Shown piece by piece: positions 27,245-41,493 of a stretch of DNA of 63,873 nt. Position numbers and translations under genes: made by a program. The stretch's first letter is position 1. Every line of letters begins with the position of its first letter. Source of the stretch: Ruditapes philippinarum. Its lineage: Eukaryota. Below the pieces are notes generated by a model. That model saw nothing but the letters and a program-made list of their open reading frames with translations. It had not been told where the DNA came from and did no database searches. Location of the stretch: the NCBI RefSeq assembly GCF_026571515.1, contig NW_026854820.1, positions 1 through 63,873 of the forward strand, in the 5' to 3' direction.

Positions 27245-27791
27245 TATATTTTATTTCTTACCAAGTTTCAAATTTGAGAACATTCAACTACAAAAGGTTT
27301 TGCTTATGTTAAAAATCACTTGAAGGTGTTTCCTATTAGTTTTTCGTTTTTTCATGGAGCTAATCTGTTATTTTTACAGTGGTAGGGAATGAAAATTTAA
27401 CCTAGTGAATAGAATTTCATAAAAAAAAAATGCATAAAAATGTGAATTATCATGGGAACAAATTTATGAAATAAAACAGGGATCACCATGCTCCTATTGA
27501 GTTATCTGCCCTGAAAATGAGTTTTTGCTTGTTTTCAAGAGCAAATAACTCAAAAACCAAGCATATTGATGTCTTATTACAAATTATTCTTTGATATTTT
27601 ATTTTCAATCATTAAAATTTTACAGCTCATTTTTTCTGTAGAGGTTGCTCTAACTTGTTATTAAACAAAATATAATTATTTTGAACTTGATAGATAAATG
27701 TCATAACGTCAAAGGTTAATGCTGTGGATATTTTTAATTTACTTACTGGTGTAACACAATAATCTTATCTTTCATTTAATGTTAAAAATAT

Positions 27792-29082
27792 TGTGAGGTT
27801 AGGTAATTTTTTTAAATTACATAAGCTTCTTACTTAGTTAACATAATGATAATGGTAATTAAGTATTACTAGCACCATGGATAATTGCCATAATTATTGT
27901 TCCATTTTTACTTACATTTATTGAGGTCAATATCACATGTGTACATGTATAATTTAGGAAATCATAACACGAGAGATGATATTTACATAAATACTTATTG
28001 TCATGTCTTAATACTTCACAAATTGTTAGAAAAATACCTGTTTCTACTAAGCTCATCGTTAATTTTATTCATCTTCACTTCTTTGTTATGAAATACGAGT
28101 TTATGTTATAAAATTTCTCAATTTCCTAGTCCATGTCCGCCATTTTGTCATACTTCCGGTTTCCGGTTTAGTTCTATTTATAATCTCAACTCGAGGTCAG
28201 ATTCATGTAAATGATTTCGGAGGCAAAGTTGATAAATAGATTAAATGTTATGTATTATTTATTGATTTAAATTGTATATTTGTTCTTATAATGAAATATT
28301 ATGACATATTTATTTCTATTGTAACCTCGAACCACCTAATTTGCATACCAAAATATGTTGGTACTCATTTGCATACCCAAAGCTGATACCAGCGTTCGAA
28401 TACCAAAAAATCACTTTGCCTCTGTCCTTACAGTAGAGTAGACGTACAAATTTTGTCTCATCCAAATCTTTCGTAAATTCTGATAAAAGTTTCATTCATT
28501 ACTAAATTTTATCTTGAAAAGGTATCTTGTAATAGATTATTTTAAACTTGTTGCCGGAAGTTCAGTATCGGTAACGATTTTGTTTACAAACTGTCAAAAT
28601 TCTGACTTAGTCTTTTTGGGCACATATTTCGGTATTTCGTACATTTGACGGCGCTTTTAGTTATAGATAATCGATCTGACCTCGAGCTATTATAGTTTTT
28701 CACATTTATGCCATTTATTTATGCTGAAATCGTTACAGTATTTATTGATTCATGCATTTGGTCTGAATCCCAGCCACGGTTATTGTTAAGGCCCATTACA
28801 AAAAGAAATCATAATTTAAACCGAAAGGAATGGCTTTGTCCTGAATTTAGTTAGTTTTCCATGTGTTATTTTTAATTGGCCGCTACCAGGCTTGTTGTTT
28901 ACGCTACTACTGATAAACTTTAGCAATTTATTTGAATAATTGCTGATGTAGTACCCTTGCACTTTGAAGTAAAAAGTACCCATTTACACAGCCTGACTAT
29001 AAAATCTGAGAAAACTTGGTTAAGAGAGTAAAACAGGTGATAGTCGAGAGAAAAGTCATACACACGATACAGGGGCGCTACA
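27792..29082 (+). repeat. 5' LTR (1291 bp)
   Basis: tgtgaggttagg...ggggcgctaca; near-identical to 38217-39544. Confidence 0.96.
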
Positions 29083-29087
29083 TAAAA

Positions 29088-29101
29088 TGTTGGCAGCGGT
29101 G
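29088..29101 (+). promoter_or_regulatory. Primer-binding site, probably tRNA-Leu
   Basis: tgttggcagcggtg, 5 nt after the LTR, approximates the complement of the tRNA-Leu(AAG/TAG) 3' end (TGGTGGCAGCGGTGG). Confidence 0.75.
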
Positions 29102-29949
29102 CTGATACCAAGTACCTCCAGGAACTAGTAACCAGTTATTAGCAGTACCTATAACCCAGTAGTCCTACCAGAGATAGACTGTTACCAAGTCTTTGTACAT
29201 TTGCTATTTTTCATGTAATTAAATAATACAGCATTTTAGAATTTTCAGTGCAGTTTGATCATCAAGGCTATTCCAAAGCCTTTGGCAAGTATAAACAAGT
29301 AGTAGTGATAGGTTTTATTTATTCTTTTTAAATTAGTACAAAGCCAATACCACCAGTGTAATAAGCCATTTCCAGACTGGAGTAATAAAAGCCAATTCCA
29401 GGCTTTGGTAATTTTGTGTTTGAAAAATTAACATTTATCTTTGGCACGTTGAGCTTGGTGTATCTTGTTTGGATACATTTCATAGAGCCGTGCCCAGAAC
29501 ACTTTTTATTAAATAAGTTTAGTCTACCAACACTGATTAAAGCCAATACCAGGCTTGGGTAGTAATAGAGTAACAATAACCAGATTACTGTAGTTTCAGC
29601 CATTACCAGGCTTAGGTATATTAAAATATACATACAATATTATAGAAGTTAAGTACAACCATCAAAAAGAAGTCACAGTGATATTGTTACTTCCAGATCA
29701 TTACTTTACCTTTTGAGTGTTTTCTAACTGTTTTCCAAGTTAGACTTTAACTTCAAAGACATTGCCATAATTGTTTTGTTAATATACAAAAAGAGTATAT
29801 ATATATTTTTATCAGTAATAAAATATCACACAATTATATTTGTGTGTGAATTGTAAAATACAGAATTTATATATTTTTATATAATTAAGTAATAATATTA
29901 GAACTTAACATAAATTGAAATATTACTTAAATAAAACCTTAGTTACAGT

Positions 29950-31681
29950 ATGGATTTTTCGCTGGACCCAGCTGACATTCCATGTACAGACAATGACCAG
30001 TCTACCAGTGACCAGCCAATGATACCAATATACATGTCCAGTAGACCAACCTTGATGACCACAACAACAAATACTATCAGTTCTACTATACCTACAGTTG
30101 GGACAGAGGCGAAGTCAAAAACAAAGTCAAAATCTAGGTCTGAAGGTTGCGGTGATATGGCTGGAGTTGACTTAGTGGCAACTGGGACAAATGACCAGTT
30201 GGTACTTGGGACACCTTCCGGTGAAGTGACCTGGCGCAGGCGTCCAGGGGTGGATAACGAAGTTTCAGATGACCAGGGAATTATCAACCCTGGCAGGTAT
30301 TACACCGGACTCAATGGAGAAGCCAGGGCCTCGGGGGTCAGGAATAAAGCCTTGCAAGGTGGAACTGATGGGGTGGGGGTATATAGGGATATTTTTGATA
30401 CTAGACATAATAATTACAGATCAGTTCCAAATAATAATGAGAGGACCTTGACCGATGGTATTATAGACCAGTGTCAGGTACCTAGGGATTTAACCGGCAA
30501 GGGTAGGGAGCCGGAATGGGGGTATATTTACTCTGATTATGCAGAGTCTGGCCCGTTGGGTGTTTCCGGGTATAGGAGGAGGGAACCGTGGGCTTTAGGG
30601 GCAAGCAGATACCGGTATCCTGGGCCCTCCATGCCCGATGAGTGGTGTAGACCTGAAAGATCTGGTATGATTCCAGGGGATTATGGAGATGTTGGAAGAC
30701 AATTAACTGCAGACATACCACTTAGACCAGTACCATCAACAAGACAATTACCATCAAGTTCAACACATCATCAGACATATGAAGCTCCCCGCAATAACCT
30801 AAAACCTCCAACTTATGATGGCACAACCGAACTTAACTCATATATTACACAATTTGAGATGACCAGTGAATTAAATGAGTGGTCTTATGAAAAGAAAGCA
30901 CTCCAATTAGCTGTATCCTTAAGAGGTAGAGCTGCCGAAATATTAAATGACATTCCTACTGACAGACGAAGAGACTATAACTTAATGATTGAAAGCCTTG
31001 TGGATAGATTTCAACCACAGAACCAAAGAAAACTTCATGTTGCGAAGTTAAGAGCCCGAATCCGTAGACGTAATGAATCACTTGATGACCTGGCCAATGA
31101 TATCAAAAATATGACCAGATTAGCTTACCGAGATTTAAATATGAAATGCAGAGAAGAAATGGCATTAGAATGCTTTGCTGAAGCCTTAAATGATGACCAG
31201 TTACGAAGAGACTTAATTGTAGGTGGTCCAAAAACTATGTCAGAAGCACTGAGGTTAGCCACTGAAGCAGAACTGAGTTATTCTAGAAGAAACCATTATT
31301 ATTCTAGAATGATTCAAAATGAACCAAATGGTGTCCTATTAAGAAGAATAGAAGAATTAGAAAGAAGTGCTGAAAACCAAGCATTTCACAGAATTGCCAT
31401 AATTGAAGATTTTCCTGAAGGGAAACAAAAAATAACCTCCAGTTAGAAACTCCCAGAACAAATCCAAATCAAGACAAACAGGTGTTTGTTACTATTGTAA
31501 TGAACCAGGCCATATCAAAAGAGATTGTCCTTTACTTAAAGAGCCTAAAAATCACCCATATAATAAATATCATAACCCACAGTACAAAGGTACATACCAA
31601 CAAAAAAGTTACAGTATACCAAAAAGTAACAGAAGTTACCACCAAGGTTCCAAAATGGGAAACCAGGGAAACTTTCAGTAG
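29950..31681 (+). pseudogene. gag: gag: long low-complexity N-terminus, capsid (LKPPTYDG), CCHC knuckle; +1 frameshift at ~31435
   Basis: 498-aa ORF; CYYCNEPGHIKRDC (from 31487) lies in the next frame, which is open to TAG at 31679-31681. Confidence 0.9.
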
Positions 31682-31708
31682 CTGATGGTGAGGTCCAACC
31701 TTCAGCTA
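31657..31708 (+). promoter_or_regulatory. -1 programmed ribosomal frameshift signal (gag to pol)
   Basis: Two in-frame G GGA AAC heptamers (31657-31663, 31666-31672) followed 6 nt later by hairpin tagctga...tcagcta; pol is in the -1 frame. Confidence 0.8.
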
Positions 31709-34700
31709 AAATAGAGCATACAATTTTCAAAGGACCTTTAAATTATTATGATTCAAGGGAGACAAATCCAAAATCTCCATATAAACAATTTAATACATAT
31801 TTCTTGCCCTTGACTGTTAAAAATTTACCTTTAGTTGCACTTTTAGATACTGGAAGTGCTGTTAGCATATTGAAATATGAAAACTGGAAAATGATACCTG
31901 ACAATGAAAGACCACCTCTACAAGTGACCAATACAAGATTTAAAGCAGCTGATGGTGGAAATATACAGAATTATGGCTTTGTGACCTTACAAATAGATAT
32001 AAATGGGTTAAAATTTAACCATGAAATTTTAATAGCAGAAATAGATGTTACATGTATACTAGGTTGGGATTTTATGCATTTACATAATTTGACCTTGTCA
32101 ATGGGAACAGGTGAAGTTCAATGCCAGGGACAGATACTTAAATGTTTAAAAGAGTATCAATTACCAATAGTTCATAGAATCCAAGCAACTGAAACCTTTA
32201 AATTGCCTCCTACTAGTGAAACAATTATAATGGGGACCTTTGACATTGAAACTCCTTATTTTAGGACTGGTTTAACAGACAATTATGAAGAAAGATTACT
32301 TTCTGAGGGTGTTATTGTTGTCAAAGCTTTGGTAGATACAAACCAAGATAAGATACCTATAAGACTTATAAATCTAAATGAAAAACCTATAACCATTTAT
32401 GAGCATATGAATATAGCTACATGTACACCTGTAACCCTAGTTGAACAGACACAGAGAGTAAATCACATAACTTTAGAACAAACTGAAAAACCTTCCCTTC
32501 CAGACCATGTGAAACCAGTTATGGATGAATGTAAGAGTAACCTTAGCCTAGATGAACAGAACCAAGTAGAACAGTTATTATTTAAGTATCAACATATCTT
32601 CAGCAAGTCTAAATCTGACTTGGGGAACACAGACCTTATAAAGCATAAAATTAACACTGGACTGGCACCACCTATTAAACAACAATACCGCAGACTTCCT
32701 CAAAAAGTACAAGAAGAAGTTAACAAAGAAGTTGACAGGTTGTATGATGCCGGACGAAAGAAAGTCATCGACCATGGGCAGCACCTATAGTACCTGTACG
32801 CAAGCCCGATAACTCCATCAGATTGGCCATAGATTATCGCAAACTAAATGCAGTTACATTAAAAGACAGTTATCCCTTACCCAGAATTCAAGATTGTCTA
32901 GACTGCCTAAAAGGAGCCAAATTTTACAGTTCTTTAGATTGTTCTTCAGGTTTTCATCATGTTCAAATGGATCCTAATGACATGGAAAAAACCAGTTTTG
33001 TATGCCAAAAAGGACAATACCGCTTCAAAGTTCTCAGTTTTGGACTTACCAATGCTGTAGCTACTTTCCAAAGACTTATGGAATATATTATGTCTGGTCT
33101 ACAATATCAAACAGTACTTATATATGTTGATGACATATTGATATTCACCACTGACTTTGAAACACATTTAACCCAGTTAGAAGAGGTTCTCAGAAGATTA
33201 GAAAAGGCAAATCTTAAAGTAATGCCAAAGAAAGTTCATCTATTTCAAGTTCAATTACGTTTTCTAGGCCATATTGTTAGCCAAAATGGTGTTGTTCCAA
33301 ATGATGAAAAGGTCAAGGTAGTAAAAGATTGGCCTATACCAAAGAACTCAAAGCAATTATCTTCATTTTTGGGTCTTGTTTCCTATTACAGACGTTCAAT
33401 AGAAGGATTTGCTAAAATAGCTCATCCTTTACATCAACTTACACATAAAAATACAAAGTTCATTTGGACTGAAGAATGCCAGACAGCATTCAACAAGTTA
33501 AAACAAAAATTGACAGAAGCACCAATATTAGGTTATCCTAATTCCCATGACTTATACATATTAGATACTGACTGTAGCTCATATTGCCTCGGAAGTGTGC
33601 TACAACAAAAACAAGGTGACACTATACGTGTCATAGCCTATTACAGTCGTACCTTAAACCATCCTGAGAGACAATACTGTGTAACACGTAAAGAACTATT
33701 AGCAATAGTTGAATCAGTGAAGCATTTTCACAATTATTTATATGGGGTTCATTTTTTAATTAGAACCGATCATTCAGCATTATCATGGGCTTTGAAATTT
33801 CAAACCCCTATGGGACAATTGAGTAGATGGATAAATACCCTTAGTTTATATGATTTTGATGTAGAACACAGAAGTGGTGTTCGCCATAGAAATGCAGATG
33901 CATTATCACGTAAACCTTGTGGAGATTGTAAATATTGCAACAAACTTGAAACTAATGACAAAGATGAATCTGAGTCAGATCAATGTATTGGTTTGCGTGT
34001 TGGGTCTGTTACTACATCCATTCCAGAAGTAAATTTGAATGATAAAGAAATGACCAAGAGTGAAGAAAACAGCAAAAGTAATAGCAATGAAGATACAGAC
34101 TTCCTGACAAGGGCCCTGGAAGGTGGTCTGTTAGTAAATGCAATAGAAAGAGAGGGCGAGAATTCCAATAGGACCTCTGACCCCCTGAGGAATTCTGTTA
34201 GTCTACAAGATAACTTGTTAGAAGTGGATTGGAAAGCAACCCAGCAAGCTGACCCTGAAATTGGAAAGATTCAAGATAATTTATCACAAAATAACAGACC
34301 TACAGCCAATGACATTTCACATTTAGGTAGAGAATATAAGGCTTATTGGTCTCAATGGCCAAGTTTAATACTTCATGATGATGTGGTGTACAGAACACAT
34401 ACCAATAAATTGGGGGAGGAGCAATTTCAAATTATTGTGCCAAAAGTTGTTAGAAATACAGTACTTAAATACGTACATGACCATAAAACTGCCGGACACT
34501 TAGGCGAAAAGAAAACATATCAAAGACTTAAACAAAAATTTTACTGGTTAAACAGTAAAGAAGATGTGTCGCAACATTGTAAAAATTATATATAATGTCA
34601 AGGTAGAAAAATGCCCTATAGAGCTGCAAAAGCACCTTTGAAGTCAAATATTACTGGTGTTCCTTTAGAAAAGGTCGGAATTGATCTAATCGGACCTTTA

Positions 34701-35510
34701 CCTATAACTTATAAGAAAAATAAATATATCTTATTTGTTCAATGTTATTTTACAAAATGGGTAGAAATGTATCCATTACCAGATATGAAAGTTGAAACAA
34801 TTGCAACTACCCTAGTAAATGAATTCATATGTAGATATGGCCTTATGACCAAAATAGTCACTGACCAGGGACGCCAGTTCGAATCAAATCTATTTCAAGA
34901 ATTATGTAAAAGGTTAGACATAGTAAAATTACGGTCTACAGCCTTTCACCCACAGACCTGTGGTCTCATTGAAAGAATGAATCGCAGTATTGAAGATATG
35001 TTAAGTAAATACATATCAGACACCCAAAAAGACTGGGATGACTGGATACCAGTACTACTGTTAGCTTACAGATCATCTGTTCATGCCAGTACCGGAAAAT
35101 CACCATACCAGATGATGTTCGGACATAGTCCAAAATTACCTATTGACATATTGTATGGTCAAGGACCTCAAGGAAATTTAGAATTCTCCAGTGAACAATA
35201 TGTTCAGCATTTACAGACATATCTTAGAAAATGCCATGACCAGGCACGAGATCAAATGTTAACTGCAGCAAAACAACAAAAACATGACTATGATACCCGT
35301 TTAAATTTAATTTCTTATAAAGAAAATGACCTTGTATGGGCAAAAGTTTTTGCCAGAAAGAAAGGAATCAGCCCAAAACTTAGTTTTAGATGGGTATGAC
35401 CCTACAGAGTAGTAAAAGTCATATCTACTCTATTATTGACCATAAAGAATATTAAGACTGGTAAAGTCTTAAATGTGCATCATAACAGATTAAAGCCTTA
35501 TAGTGTATGA
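31666..35510 (+). pseudogene. pol: pol: aspartic protease, RT, RNase H, integrase with GPY/F; disrupted
   Basis: LLDTGS, IDYRKLN, YVDD, LDTDCS/RTDH/NADALSR, HHCC, TDQGRQF..ERMNR; frameshift at ~32755, stops at 34593 and 35397 (GPY Gly to TGA). Confidence 0.95.
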
Positions 35511-36065
35511 GGCAAATGTTAGTTCTGACAGAATGTTATATATATAAAAAAAATGCTTTTGACTATTATTATGTAACATATTATGTAACTTATTATGTAA
35601 CTGCATGATGTTATTTATTGTACTTGTATATCATAGTCCTCCTATGAAAAATTGTTTATTGATTATTTTACTTTGTACCTTTCATGAACCTTTTCTCGCT
35701 ACCAGAGATATTACCAATTTTCAGTGCCAAGTGAATTGTTTTACAGATTTTCCAATCTTAGACCAGAATCGACAATTATATGACGTGACAAGAATAGAAG
35801 GCCGTATTTGCTTTAAAGAAGCCGCGACCATATTAACGTGATTTCCGTGCAACCCGTGCGATGCGAAATGTGCCCAAAAGGATATTCATCGAAAAAATAT
35901 ATAATGATATATAAAAGAAGAAAAAATAAATAAATAGATATTTACTGCAATAAACATCATTAGACCGACCGGCGGCATTTGTTAAACCAGTTTTCTTTAT
36001 TTAAATAAATAAAAACATGTCCCAAGTAAAATGGTTATTATGATATGTATATTTGATATTTCAGA

Positions 36066-37217
36066 ATGTCTAAGAGAAAATCAGCAACCACTGCAACCAT
36101 GCCTGCAAAGTACAAATGCAAGCCTTGTAACCTTTGTTATGACAACCAAACCCAGTTAGTAAGGCACAGGGATGGCCCACAGGTTATGTGCTCATTCGAA
36201 CACACACAGGCATTTGTGGTGCCCCATAAGAGGACCGATGTACAAAGGCGACTTCTAGTGAAGGCGCACGGTTTTTCTGAATCAACAGAAGTGTCTAGAG
36301 TAAGACAATTATTCTTGCCTTATTTTGAGGAGTGCGACACTCCGGCTTTGAATGTACCACTCCACTCGGCGGTGGTAGTCCCAAGCTCGACATCCACTTC
36401 ATCCTTACCAGCCGAACAAGCAGCCTTGCATGTGCCTGTCGTTGGTACTGGTTCATCACCAGTTGTATCTTCTGTGCCGATTCCGCCTGGAATTCCTCCA
36501 ACACCATCTCCAGCTACCATACCAAGTACATGTATACCTGTATCCTTGGACACACTTATAGATGAAACTACTGTTCAAGATTCACTTGAAGCTTTTCTTA
36601 ACGAGACCGAAACCACATCCTTGCCACCTCTTAGTTTAGACTGGACCTTTTCAAACCCTACATTATCAGAGCCCATCAGATATAAAACGCCAGAGAAGAA
36701 ACCAACCAACGTAAGCCCTACCTTGAGAACACCAACCCTTCCATTAGATTATGAAAACACAGACTACAACAACAACAAAAGCTCAGATTTAAACACTCCC
36801 ACCATTCCTTTGGACTCCACACAACAAAATATTTCAACGTACTCAATGTTTCCTTCCCCTAGAATTAATGAAGGCGTTTCTATCAACGGCCTTGATGTCA
36901 CACAACAGCCAGTATTTCCGCCAAGAAGACTGAAGGTGCCAGCCAGGAAACCATTAGACCCCAGACTACTCTTCAGGGATGCACCTTCAGAATTCTTGGC
37001 AGGATCCATGGCCAGAATTGCCGCATTCCAGCGAAAAGAAATTATCAACCAGGCAAATGAAGACAACACCAGTATATCCTTTGAGAACCAAAATTTCGCA
37101 ATCACCAGAGTAGAACAAATTCAACTACTGGATGGAAGGACCCTGACGATGAAGACCACCTGTACCATAGATGACGGCCTCAAGATATGCAGAGGAACAC
37201 AGACACAGACAGAATAA
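36066..37217 (+). CDS. Accessory ORF3 of the Gypsy element, 383 aa: basic N-terminus, degenerate C2H2-type fingers, P/S/T-rich region, C-terminal RGTQTQTE
   Basis: Intact GC-richer ORF between pol and PPT; ttgatatttcag acceptor ends 2 nt before the ATG; C-x2-C-x12-H; no signal peptide or TM segment seen. Confidence 0.75.
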   Translation: MSKRKSATTATMPAKYKCKPCNLCYDNQTQLVRHRDGPQVMCSFEHTQAFVVPHKRTDVQRRLLVKAHGFSESTEVSRVRQLFLPYFEECDTPALNVPLHSAVVVPSSTSTSSLPAEQAALHVPVVGTGSSPVVSSVPIPPGIPPTPSPATIPSTCIPVSLDTLIDETTVQDSLEAFLNETETTSLPPLSLDWTFSNPTLSEPIRYKTPEKKPTNVSPTLRTPTLPLDYENTDYNNNKSSDLNTPTIPLDSTQQNISTYSMFPSPRINEGVSINGLDVTQQPVFPPRRLKVPARKPLDPRLLFRDAPSEFLAGSMARIAAFQRKEIINQANEDNTSISFENQNFAITRVEQIQLLDGRTLTMKTTCTIDDGLKICRGTQTQTE

Positions 37218-38202: not shown

Positions 38203-38216
38203 AGGAGAGAGGGTAA
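38203..38216 (+). promoter_or_regulatory. Polypurine tract
   Basis: aggagagagggtaa directly before the 3' LTR. Confidence 0.85.
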
Positions 38217-39544
38217 TGTGAGGTTAGGTAATTTTTTTAAATTACATAAGCTTCTTACTTAGTTAACATAATGATAATGGTAATTAAGTATTACTAGCAC
38301 CATGGATAATTGCCATAATTATTGTTCCATTTTTACTTACATTTATTGAGGTCAATATCACATGTGTACATGTATAATTTAAGAAATCATAACACGAGAG
38401 ATGATATTTACATAAATACTTATTGTCATGCCTTAATACTTCACAAATTGTTAGAAAAAATACCTGTTTCTACTAAGCTCATCGTTAATTTTATTCATCT
38501 TCACTTCTTTGTTATGAAATACGAGTTTATGTTATAAAATTTCTCAATTTCCTAGTCCATGTCCGCCATTTTGTCATACTTCCGGTTTCCGGTTTAGTTC
38601 TATTTATAATCTCAACTCGAGGTCAGATTCATGTAAATGATTTCGGAGGCAAAGTTGATAAATAGATTAAATGTTATGTATTATTTATTGATTTAAATTG
38701 TATATTTGTTCTTATAATGAAATATTATGACATATTTATTTTCTATTGTAACCTCGAACCACCTAATTTGCATACCAAAATATGTTGGTACTCATTTGCA
38801 TACCCAAAGCTGATACCAGCGTTCGAATACCAAAAAAATCACTTTGCCTCTGTCCTTACAGTAGAGTGGACGTACACATTTTTGTCTCATCCAAATCTTT
38901 CATAAATTCTAATAAAAGTTTCATTCATTACTAAATTTCATCTTGAAAAGGTATCTTGTAATAGATTATTTTGAACTTGTAACCGGAAGTTCAGTATCGG
39001 TAACGATTTTGTTTACAAACTGTCAAAATTCTGACTTAGTCTTTTTGGGCACATATTTCGATATTTCGTACATTTGACGGCGCTTTTAGTTATAGATAAT
39101 CGATCTGACCTCGAGCTATTATAGTTTTTCACATTTATGCCATTTATTTATGCTGAAATCGTTACAGTATTTATTGATTCATGCATTTGGTCTGAATCCC
39201 AGCCACGGTTATTGTTAAGGCCCATTACAAAAAGAAATCATAATTTAAACCGAAAGGAATGGCTTTGTCCTGAATTTAGTTAGTTTTCCATGTGTTATTT
39301 TTAATTGGCCGCTACCAGGCTTGTTGTTTACGCTACCAGTAAACTGTTTAATTACTTATTTACGTTAATACTGATAAACTTTAGCAATTTATTTGAATAA
39401 TTGCTGATGAAGTACCCTTGCATTTTGAAGTAAAAAGTACCCATTTACACAACCTGACTATAAAATCTGAGAAAAACTTGGTTAAGAGAGTAAAACAGGT
39501 GATAGTCGAGAGAAAAGTCATACACACGATACAGGGGCGCTACA
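38217..39544 (+). repeat. 3' LTR (1328 bp)
   Basis: Matches the 5' LTR plus a 32-bp segment (39337-39368) and 5 homopolymer indels. Confidence 0.96.
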
Positions 39545-39973
39545 ATATTTTGAGTTCAAACTGACCATGGCCACATCTATTTGACTCTCAGGCAGTGTAA
39601 AGAGACAGGTGAGTCATTACCTCTTGTATGTTTTAACCTTTAACCTGCATTAGCAGAAAGTGATTAACCGTTGCCAGCAGTATAGAGCTAGACCAGCCTG
39701 CACATCTGCGTAGTTTGATCGGGTTCTATACCGTTAGCCATCTCACTTTTTGTAGTTGTATTAAAATCCCATAATTTTTAAATGGGCAGTTCAAAATAAT
39801 AGGATAAGTCTACAACACAAATTCAGCAGAAGAAAGGGTAAGGTGGGTAAAAAAAACATACATATTGATAATAAAATTATCATATATTTATAATGCAATC
39901 AGCTGTGTAATAACGTAAGAGGCTACTGTAGATTACAGTTTACAAACTATTACATGATATTGTGTTATTTTAG

Positions 39974-40599: not shown

Positions 40600-41493
40600 T
40601 TTTTAGCTCACCTGTCACAAAGTGACATGGTGAGCTTTTGTGATCGCTTTTCGTCCGGCGTCCGTCCGTCCGTAAACTTTTACTTTAAACGACATCTCCT
40701 CATAAACCACTAAGCCAATTCATCTAAACTTCACAAGAATGTTCCTTTGGTAGTCAACTTTAAAAATTGTTCAAAGAATTTTATTCCAAGCAGAACTCTG
40801 GTTGCCATGGCAACTGAAAGAAAAAACTTAAAATATCTTCTTCTAGAAAACCGTAAGATCTAGAGCTTAAATATTTGGCATGAAACATCATCTAGGCAGT
40901 GTCTACCAAGTTTGTTAAAATAAATGCCCTGGGGTCAAAATTGGCCCCGCCTCGGGGGTCATTGATTTTCTTATTAACTTAAAAAAATCTTCTTTTAAAA
41001 ACCCCAAATAGCTAGAGCTTAGCTATTAAGCATGAAACATCTTCTAGTGGGTGTCTACCAAATTTGTTCAAATAAAAGCCCTGGGGTCAAAATTGGCCCC
41101 ACCCCAGGGGATCATTGGTTTTCCCTTTATGTATATAGTAAAAACTATAGTAAAAATCTTCTTTTAAAAAACCTTTAGAGCTAGAGCTAAGATATTTAGC
41201 TTGAAATATCTTCTAATAGGTGTCTACCATTTTTGTTCAAATAAGGGCCCTGGGGTTAAAATTGGCCCCATCCCGGGGATCATTGATTTTCCTTTTGATG
41301 TATATAGTAAAAACTTAAAAACTCTTCTGTAAAAAAAACCCCAAAGAGCTAGAGTTTAGATATTAAGCATGAATTATCTTCTAGTGAGTGTCTACCATGT
41401 TTGTTCAAATAAAAGCCCCTGGGTTAAAATTTGCCCTGCCGCGGGGGCCTATATACAGGTGAGCGATTTGAGGGCCATCATGGCCCTTTTGTT
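40600..41493 (+). mobile_element. HINE/DTC84-like element with ~160-bp internal repeats (BIV160-like)
   Basis: subTIR gctcacctg / caggtgagc; GTCC microsatellite; ccctggggtcaaaattggcccc x4; 3' hairpin agggccatcatggccct; empty site in paralogs (~7070, ~19256). Confidence 0.88.

Follow-up and report, generated by a model that had tools for sequence, protein, structure and literature searches.

What does the third open reading frame of a Gypsy element encode when it takes the place of env and yet has none of the marks of an envelope gene? The question is raised by the window analysed here, a stretch of 63,873 nt from Ruditapes philippinarum (NW_026854820.1), which holds a Ty3/Gypsy (Metaviridae) LTR retrotransposon of 11.75 kb. 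An LTR pair, a primer-binding site, a polypurine tract and the domain order protease, RT, RNase H, integrase are all present, and the domain order was confirmed by a Pfam scan. All features given below lie on the forward strand. The 5' LTR (27792..29082) and the 3' LTR (38217..39544), both of the form TG...CA, are identical at 1276 of 1290 alignment columns (98.9%), and ATAT duplications of the target site flank the element at 27788-27791 and 39545-39548. Such ATAT-type duplications were seen repeatedly in several of the Gypsy families examined, which suggests a target preference. The primer-binding site (29091..29101) is presumably of the tRNA-Leu type, the leader carries an array of hairpins (29098..29612), and the polypurine tract is found at 38204..38213. 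The gag gene (29951..31446) is interrupted before its end and pol (31630..35399) is broken over three frames; as gag-pol is split over four frames in all, there must be at least three breaks. Outside the element, at 40831-41464, a 145-nt repeat occurs four times with a spacing of 152-169 nt.

The third frame, ORF3, runs from an ATG at 36066 to a stop at 37217 (36066..37217, 383 aa), 3' of the integrase and inside the LTRs, as the initial annotation had it. The splice acceptor claimed just 5' of the ATG was also recovered; it is predicted at 36053..36064, with a single base between it and the ATG, and all seven sister copies that cover the site retain the AG (36063-36064). The gag ATG likewise stands one base after a YAG, preceded by an AT-rich stretch (29940-29953), and gag and ORF3 may both be reached via alternative acceptors. 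The predicted protein has a basic N-terminus, a C2H2-type zinc-finger pair (aa 16-70, 36111..36275), a linker with 42% P, S and T over aa 91-285, in agreement with the P/S/T-rich region described earlier, and within this disordered linker an acidic-hydrophobic patch (aa 155-197, 36528..36656) which resembles an activation domain and is conserved above its flanks. A conserved C-terminal domain (aa 298-367, 36957..37166), predicted as a helix and a three-strand sheet, is followed by the terminal ICRGTQTQTE (37185..37214), a predicted LC8/DYNLL motif that is unstructured in the deep-alignment model. The highest hydropathy over a 19-aa window is 1.13, hence there is no TM segment, as had been stated, and ORF3 has neither the signal peptide nor the C-terminal TM segment of an env class I fusion glycoprotein.

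In the window copy each finger has lost one predicted zinc ligand, the first by a gap of 9 nt, in frame, near 36175, the second by a substitution at a ligand position that the relatives keep, and its matches to C2H2 entries in Pfam are all below the cut-offs. Sister copies and distant homologues have both fingers complete with four ligands each, so the degenerate second finger that had been taken for a property of the protein is a trait of this copy only. Because both fingers are damaged, the open frame of the window copy is no proof of a working protein, and the open ORF3 next to a broken gag-pol is no sign of selection on this copy; selection is seen in the family.

The own genome has 32 matches, spread over 17 contigs. 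In the comparison among copies that had been proposed, pairwise dN/dS over ORF3 was 0.15-0.29 against all 10 of 10 sister copies, and when only variants common to at least two copies were counted, the fingers gave 0.06, the C-terminal domain 0.12 and the linker 0.25. Singleton variants gave 0.35-0.78, as expected since copies decay after insertion. ORF3 is under purifying selection in the family. A search of the genome with the integrase led to two further families with the same ORF3, at a domain identity of about 20%, and a (K/R)xTQT motif lies just past the conserved domain in all three (RGTQT, RETQT and KSTQT); a fourth family (L054) stops before the TQT position. The domain of a sister family matched 25 loci in the own genome, 20 of which also match element DNA outside ORF3 and 5 of which do not. 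The loci L028-L030, L048 and L049 were matched only by the last 27 ORF3 codons; L028-L030, which were aligned, have a common deletion from window position 34500 to 37138 that removes the integrase and most of ORF3, which points to a likely non-autonomous subfamily, and the joint of this deletion is also present in run X4. In L005 and L012 LTR sequence (window 28093 or 38519) is fused directly to mid-ORF3 (36561).

In the homologue search suggested earlier, a profile of the C-terminal domain run against 1.84 billion representatives gave 62 matches, and after removal of three repeat proteins (P0032, P0033 and P0057) 59 distant clusters were counted; the matches that are full-length begin with a C2H2 pair. 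Named homologues among the 30 clusters looked up came from Mytilus galloprovincialis, Potamilus streckersoni, Haliotis cracherodii and a Sedimenticola MAG, whose sequence is probably host DNA, and relatives are present in mussels, freshwater clams and abalone. Two of four metagenome contigs were long enough, and both have Gypsy pol, a YAG directly 5' of the ATG, two fingers and an ORF3 ending in a TQT/AQT motif. With conservation, purifying selection and linkage to Gypsy pol, here and in these two contigs, ORF3 is borne out as a non-env accessory gene, and no match to a known env or host gene was found. In one Potamilus protein (P0051, KAK3583990.1) the C-terminal domain comes after an RNA 2'-phosphotransferase (Tpt1) domain, and this is either a gene-model chimera or a co-option. 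A search of viral contigs gave no relative, nothing came from the word-index protein searches (one of them covering proteins of 724-2065 aa only), the ESM Atlas gave no usable match and the PDB sequence searches gave 0 matches.

The C-terminal domain has no match in Pfam or among the PDB sequences. Its deep-alignment model (pLDDT 80.6) consists of a helix, three strands and a free TQT tail; a shallow model, in contrast to it, had put the TQT inside a fourth strand and was rejected. The best fold-search scores were Z 4.3 (rmsd 4.0, 57 aligned) for the deep model and Z 6.4 (rmsd 3.0, 69 aligned) for the shallow one, and Foldseek returned nothing at E <= 0.001. It should be noted that the lack of a clear fold match does not show the fold to be new.

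The TQT motif claimed for the window protein proved to be conserved. An LC8-type anchor was found in 35 of the 47 homologues that extend far enough, 34 of these at 21-24 aa past a conserved Gly, compared with a background of 24 in 439 windows (5.5%); it is absent from 12 of the 47, and 12 of the 59 clusters end before its position. ORF3 sequence and model together present what is expected of an LC8/DYNLL client, namely a TQT-type anchor, acceptable flanks and a disordered segment. Viral proteins use TQT-type LC8 motifs. The peptide VSRGTQTE is described in the motif passages of PMC6607443 as the best phage-display binder of LC8, and the window tail ICRGTQTQ has RGTQT in common with it. In the same passages the general view of LC8 is that of a hub for dimerisation and not of a cargo adaptor, its partners occupying the same grooves as dynein. 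This weakens the dynein link that had been put forward, and LC8 as a dimeriser is the better reading for ORF3. The own genome has 13 full-length single-exon LC8 loci (L189-L200), clustered on contigs C1882, C9411 and C13971.

Of the 144 integrase matches that were scored, 40 loci were chosen, not at random, among those ranking high, and in 28 of the 40 a zinc-finger frame lies 3' of the integrase. Two of these are of the window's type, 12 have a KCTD-type BTB, nine a Trp/Pro-rich domain (WPP type), three are of other types and two are fused to pol; the 12 loci without a frame fall inside ORF3-bearing clades (10) or on a branch of their own (2). The KCTD-type BTB loci (L109, L110, L115-L117, L121, L123, L124, L127-L129 and L136) code for two fingers, a charged linker and the BTB, and Pfam BTB_2 was above cut-off in 6/6 of the BTB-type proteins scanned. 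The WPP-type loci (L111, L113, L119, L130, L132, L135, L137, L138 and L142) code for a finger pair and a conserved Trp/Pro-rich C-terminal domain without Pfam match. L134 and L139 have no separate ORF; there a zinc-finger and acidic region continues the pol frame at its end. When 19 elements were examined over their full length, 16 had the frame enclosed by LTR-like repeats and three gave no LTR pair; in several of the 16 the repeats are 98-99.8% alike and pol is unbroken. A YAG acceptor is found shortly 5' of the fingers in the families inspected; in several BTB families it is in frame with no ATG between acceptor and fingers, so that an upstream exon is required. The TQT motif was seen in no type but that of the window. 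In the integrase tree each of the three main types has a clade of its own (97/94, 94/96 and 100/99); the C-terminal module of the finger frame follows this tree and is inherited along with the integrase. A large Gypsy group thus has at least three types of this gene with swapped modules, that of the window among them, which the initial annotation had not noted.

What, then, would such a protein do? Our leading reading, a tentative one, is that ORF3 is a spliced, nuclear regulator which is dimerised by LC8 and acts on the element's own LTR; we infer splicing, nuclear location, LC8 binding, a DNA ligand and activation. Spliced ORF3 RNA would give a protein with a nucleic-acid-binding finger pair, a disordered linker and an oligomerising module, host LC8 would pair this protein through the TQT motif, and the paired fingers would bind the LTR and switch on or protect transcription, as activator or anti-silencer. 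Two zinc fingers read only a short site, hence pairing would supply avidity. The KCTD-type BTB is an oligomerising domain, and its place in the sister clade is taken in the window clade by the new domain and the LC8 motif; as LC8 dimerises its partners, the shared plan may be read as fingers, linker and an oligomerising module, LC8-assisted or BTB.

The acidic patch is consistent with activation. By a rule looser than the published predictor, it was found in 9 of 16 type-A proteins (the window's type) against about 2.6 expected from shuffles, and was not enriched in BTB types (2/5) or others (3/8). For the window patch, 4 of 100 shuffles reached the same level, and its conservation exceeds that of its flanks. 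The published rule for acidic activators, in the passages of PMC10550315 that define it, asks for a 39-aa tile with a charge <= -9 and WFYL >= 7 and according to its authors catches one subclass only; with a charge of -8 and WFYL of 10 the best tile of the window is one charge unit outside. ASCIZ is described, in the corresponding part of PMC5963919, as a transcription factor tuned by LC8 via a disordered C-terminal part. The finger spacing in ORF3 is non-canonical, and an LTR motif varying with the fingers was looked for and none was found. RNA and proteins, too, are possible ligands of C2H2 fingers.

ORF3 is likely made from spliced RNA because the splice signals are conserved. Junction reads into 36065, the check proposed in the initial annotation, were sought in RNA contigs and partly read runs and none was seen: contigs of three presumed RNA runs pass the acceptor unspliced, the contigs of run X2 leave most of ORF3 uncovered, and two raw RNA runs, of which about 6% and about 12% were read, had zero depth over ORF3, one of them covering the LTR. 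The test is weak as the tissues of the runs are unrecorded and the family is largely decayed. Two runs labelled RNA-Seq (X21 and X22) were set aside; they have loose ends ending in GATC, 61-64% of the reads run on unlike, and they look like proximity-ligation DNA libraries. A donor scan of the window element gave no convincing splice donor; for three BTB families an in-frame donor candidate lies in early gag.

Behind the LTR regulator we rank a Rev- or CERV-like exporter, which we consider possible but rather unlikely, where the spliced ORF3 protein would multimerise on unspliced element RNA and enable its exit from the nucleus. Such a role has a precedent in CERV, a spliced nuclear Cys-finger protein required for export of genomic RNA in the account given in PMC10309623, and the YAG 5' of the fingers, the ATG-less in-frame acceptors of BTB families and the early-gag donors, comparable to the exon sharing of CERV and gag, point in the same direction. 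The leader hairpins also speak for it. With their 7-nt RNTWCCA-type loop (in the window at 29104, 29181, 29394, 29545 and 29602) they were found 19 times in sense and once in antisense, 1.4 being expected from shuffles, and one loop ending in CCA sits on unrelated stems of 5-10 bp in leader, LTR or early gag. Beside the array of the window (29098-29612), hairpins were found on contigs C13775, C1836, C8807, C7218, C8011 and C4211.

Against the exporter stands the distribution of these hairpins, which among 16 ORF3-type elements are present in several copies in 5, once in 1 and absent from 10. Elements with hairpins span all three ORF3 types, and since the same loop adjoins three very different, unrelated finger types the hairpins do not track ORF3; they are a candidate packaging or host-factor signal. 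Thus of the Rev/Tat-like system suggested earlier the hairpins stand as real, and their Rev/RRE-like pairing with ORF3 is weakened. An Rfam search of the leader and hairpins gave no match, and whole-leader folding gave z = -0.3. Further, no CERV-like match was obtained in the Pfam, PDB and fold searches, CERV itself being compared by its described layout only, and an exporter leaves the acidic patch unexplained.

An adaptor for self-restraint or counter-defence seems unlikely. Here the fingers would locate either the element or a silencing factor of the host, and a repressor or a ubiquitin ligase would be brought in by the C-terminal module. Domains of the KCTD-type BTB kind act by binding Cullin-3 or by repressing transcription factors, which lends the idea some weight in the sister clade, and LC8 reportedly dimerises the PICTS/SFiNX transposon-silencing complex of Drosophila. 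However, the window's type has no BTB, a host target is not known, and PICTS is described in Drosophila. A transport adaptor, tying the element RNP or the pre-integration complex to dynein via LC8, is improbable: the TQT is conserved family-wide and viral proteins use such motifs, but LC8 partners share the grooves of dynein, LC8 being held to be a dimerisation hub (in the passages of PMC6607443 cited above), and as the BTB and WPP types have no TQT, LC8 transport cannot be the shared job. That ORF3 was captured from the host not long ago, or is a passenger with no function, as the damaged fingers of the window copy and the missing transcript junction might suggest, is very hard to believe and largely refuted by strong purifying selection, inheritance with the integrase, pol linkage in other DNA and the element DNA outside ORF3 at 20 of the 25 sister-family loci.

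To return to the LTR regulator, the usual picture of an LTR retrotransposon is gag-pol, env being present or absent, and a zinc-finger regulator that the element encodes itself and passes on with pol in many young mollusc families would, if true, give a testable route to expression or to escape from silencing in animals. ORF3 would add an undescribed domain and, provided that LC8 is indeed bound, a client encoded by a transposon for this hub, which is said to serve the Drosophila silencing complex as well. Some gene models in mollusc annotations named 'C2H2 domain-containing', as is one ORF3 homologue in M. galloprovincialis, or BTB may be transposon genes. We give about even chances to the broader notion that a large env-less animal Gypsy group consists of 'complex' retroelements, with lineage-specific zinc-finger regulators that would control their own transcription or RNA export in the manner of Tas, Tax or Rev, and in which the exchanged oligomerising part would be either an undescribed LC8-recruiting domain, or a KCTD-type BTB that was captured, or else a third domain.

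No account of the gene was found in searches of the literature on Gypsy third ORFs, zinc fingers, BTB, LC8 and activation domains, though Repbase entries or supplements could annotate it. The words 'zinc' and 'BTB' have 0 occurrences in the main text of the errantivirus survey PMC13524379, nor do 'zinc', 'C2H2' or 'BTB' occur in the main text of PMC5408684. A look-up of the terms 'zinc' and 'ORF' in the mollusc survey PMC6238403 gave no such zinc passage, the text of PMC10294476 gave no passage with 'zinc' or 'BTB', zinc is mentioned in the searched text of PMC12440569 for the Gag knuckle only, and that of PMC2774666 has generic accessory genes only.

Complex retroviruses carry regulators between env and the 3' LTR, namely Tas of foamy virus, Tax/Rex of HTLV and Tat/Rev of HIV. 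ORF3 resembles these in its place near the 3' end and, presumably, in spliced expression and self-regulation; no sequence or fold match was found, however, and the element that carries it is an env-less Gypsy. With errantivirus env genes, as described in the main text of PMC13524379, it has the genomic position and the conserved acceptor in common, but it lacks their signal peptide and TM segment. ASCIZ/ATMIN has the same combination of zinc fingers, a long disordered part and LC8 motifs, which in ASCIZ tune its activity (in the relevant part of PMC5963919), yet ASCIZ/ATMIN is a host gene with many LC8 motifs, whereas in ORF3 there are two fingers, an LC8 motif or two and an additional folded domain, with no demonstrated homology. 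Closer in kind are the ORF3s of bdelloid rotifer LTR elements, which in the main text of PMC5408684 are family-specific non-env third ORFs after pol, assumed to be spliced and subject to modular exchange; they code instead for GDSL esterases, DEDDy exonucleases and TM or coiled-coil proteins. CERV of C. elegans Cer1, a spliced nuclear Cys-finger accessory protein with predicted rings and exons common with gag in the description of PMC10309623, is likewise a non-env accessory protein of an LTR retrotransposon, and with ORF3, for which splicing is probable, it shares a basic NLS-like patch, a zinc-binding part, flexible linkers and a predicted multimer. According to the same description CERV has a C4-type loop, H/M/G domains, gag-shared exons and no obvious homology beyond nematodes; in ORF3 a C2H2 pair at the N-terminus is followed instead by a linker rich in P/S/T, a new domain of helix and sheet, and a predicted LC8 motif. 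Non-env third ORFs are thus already known from CERV and the rotifer ORF3s, and beside them the ORF3 family is real and widespread, with the function that we infer for it.
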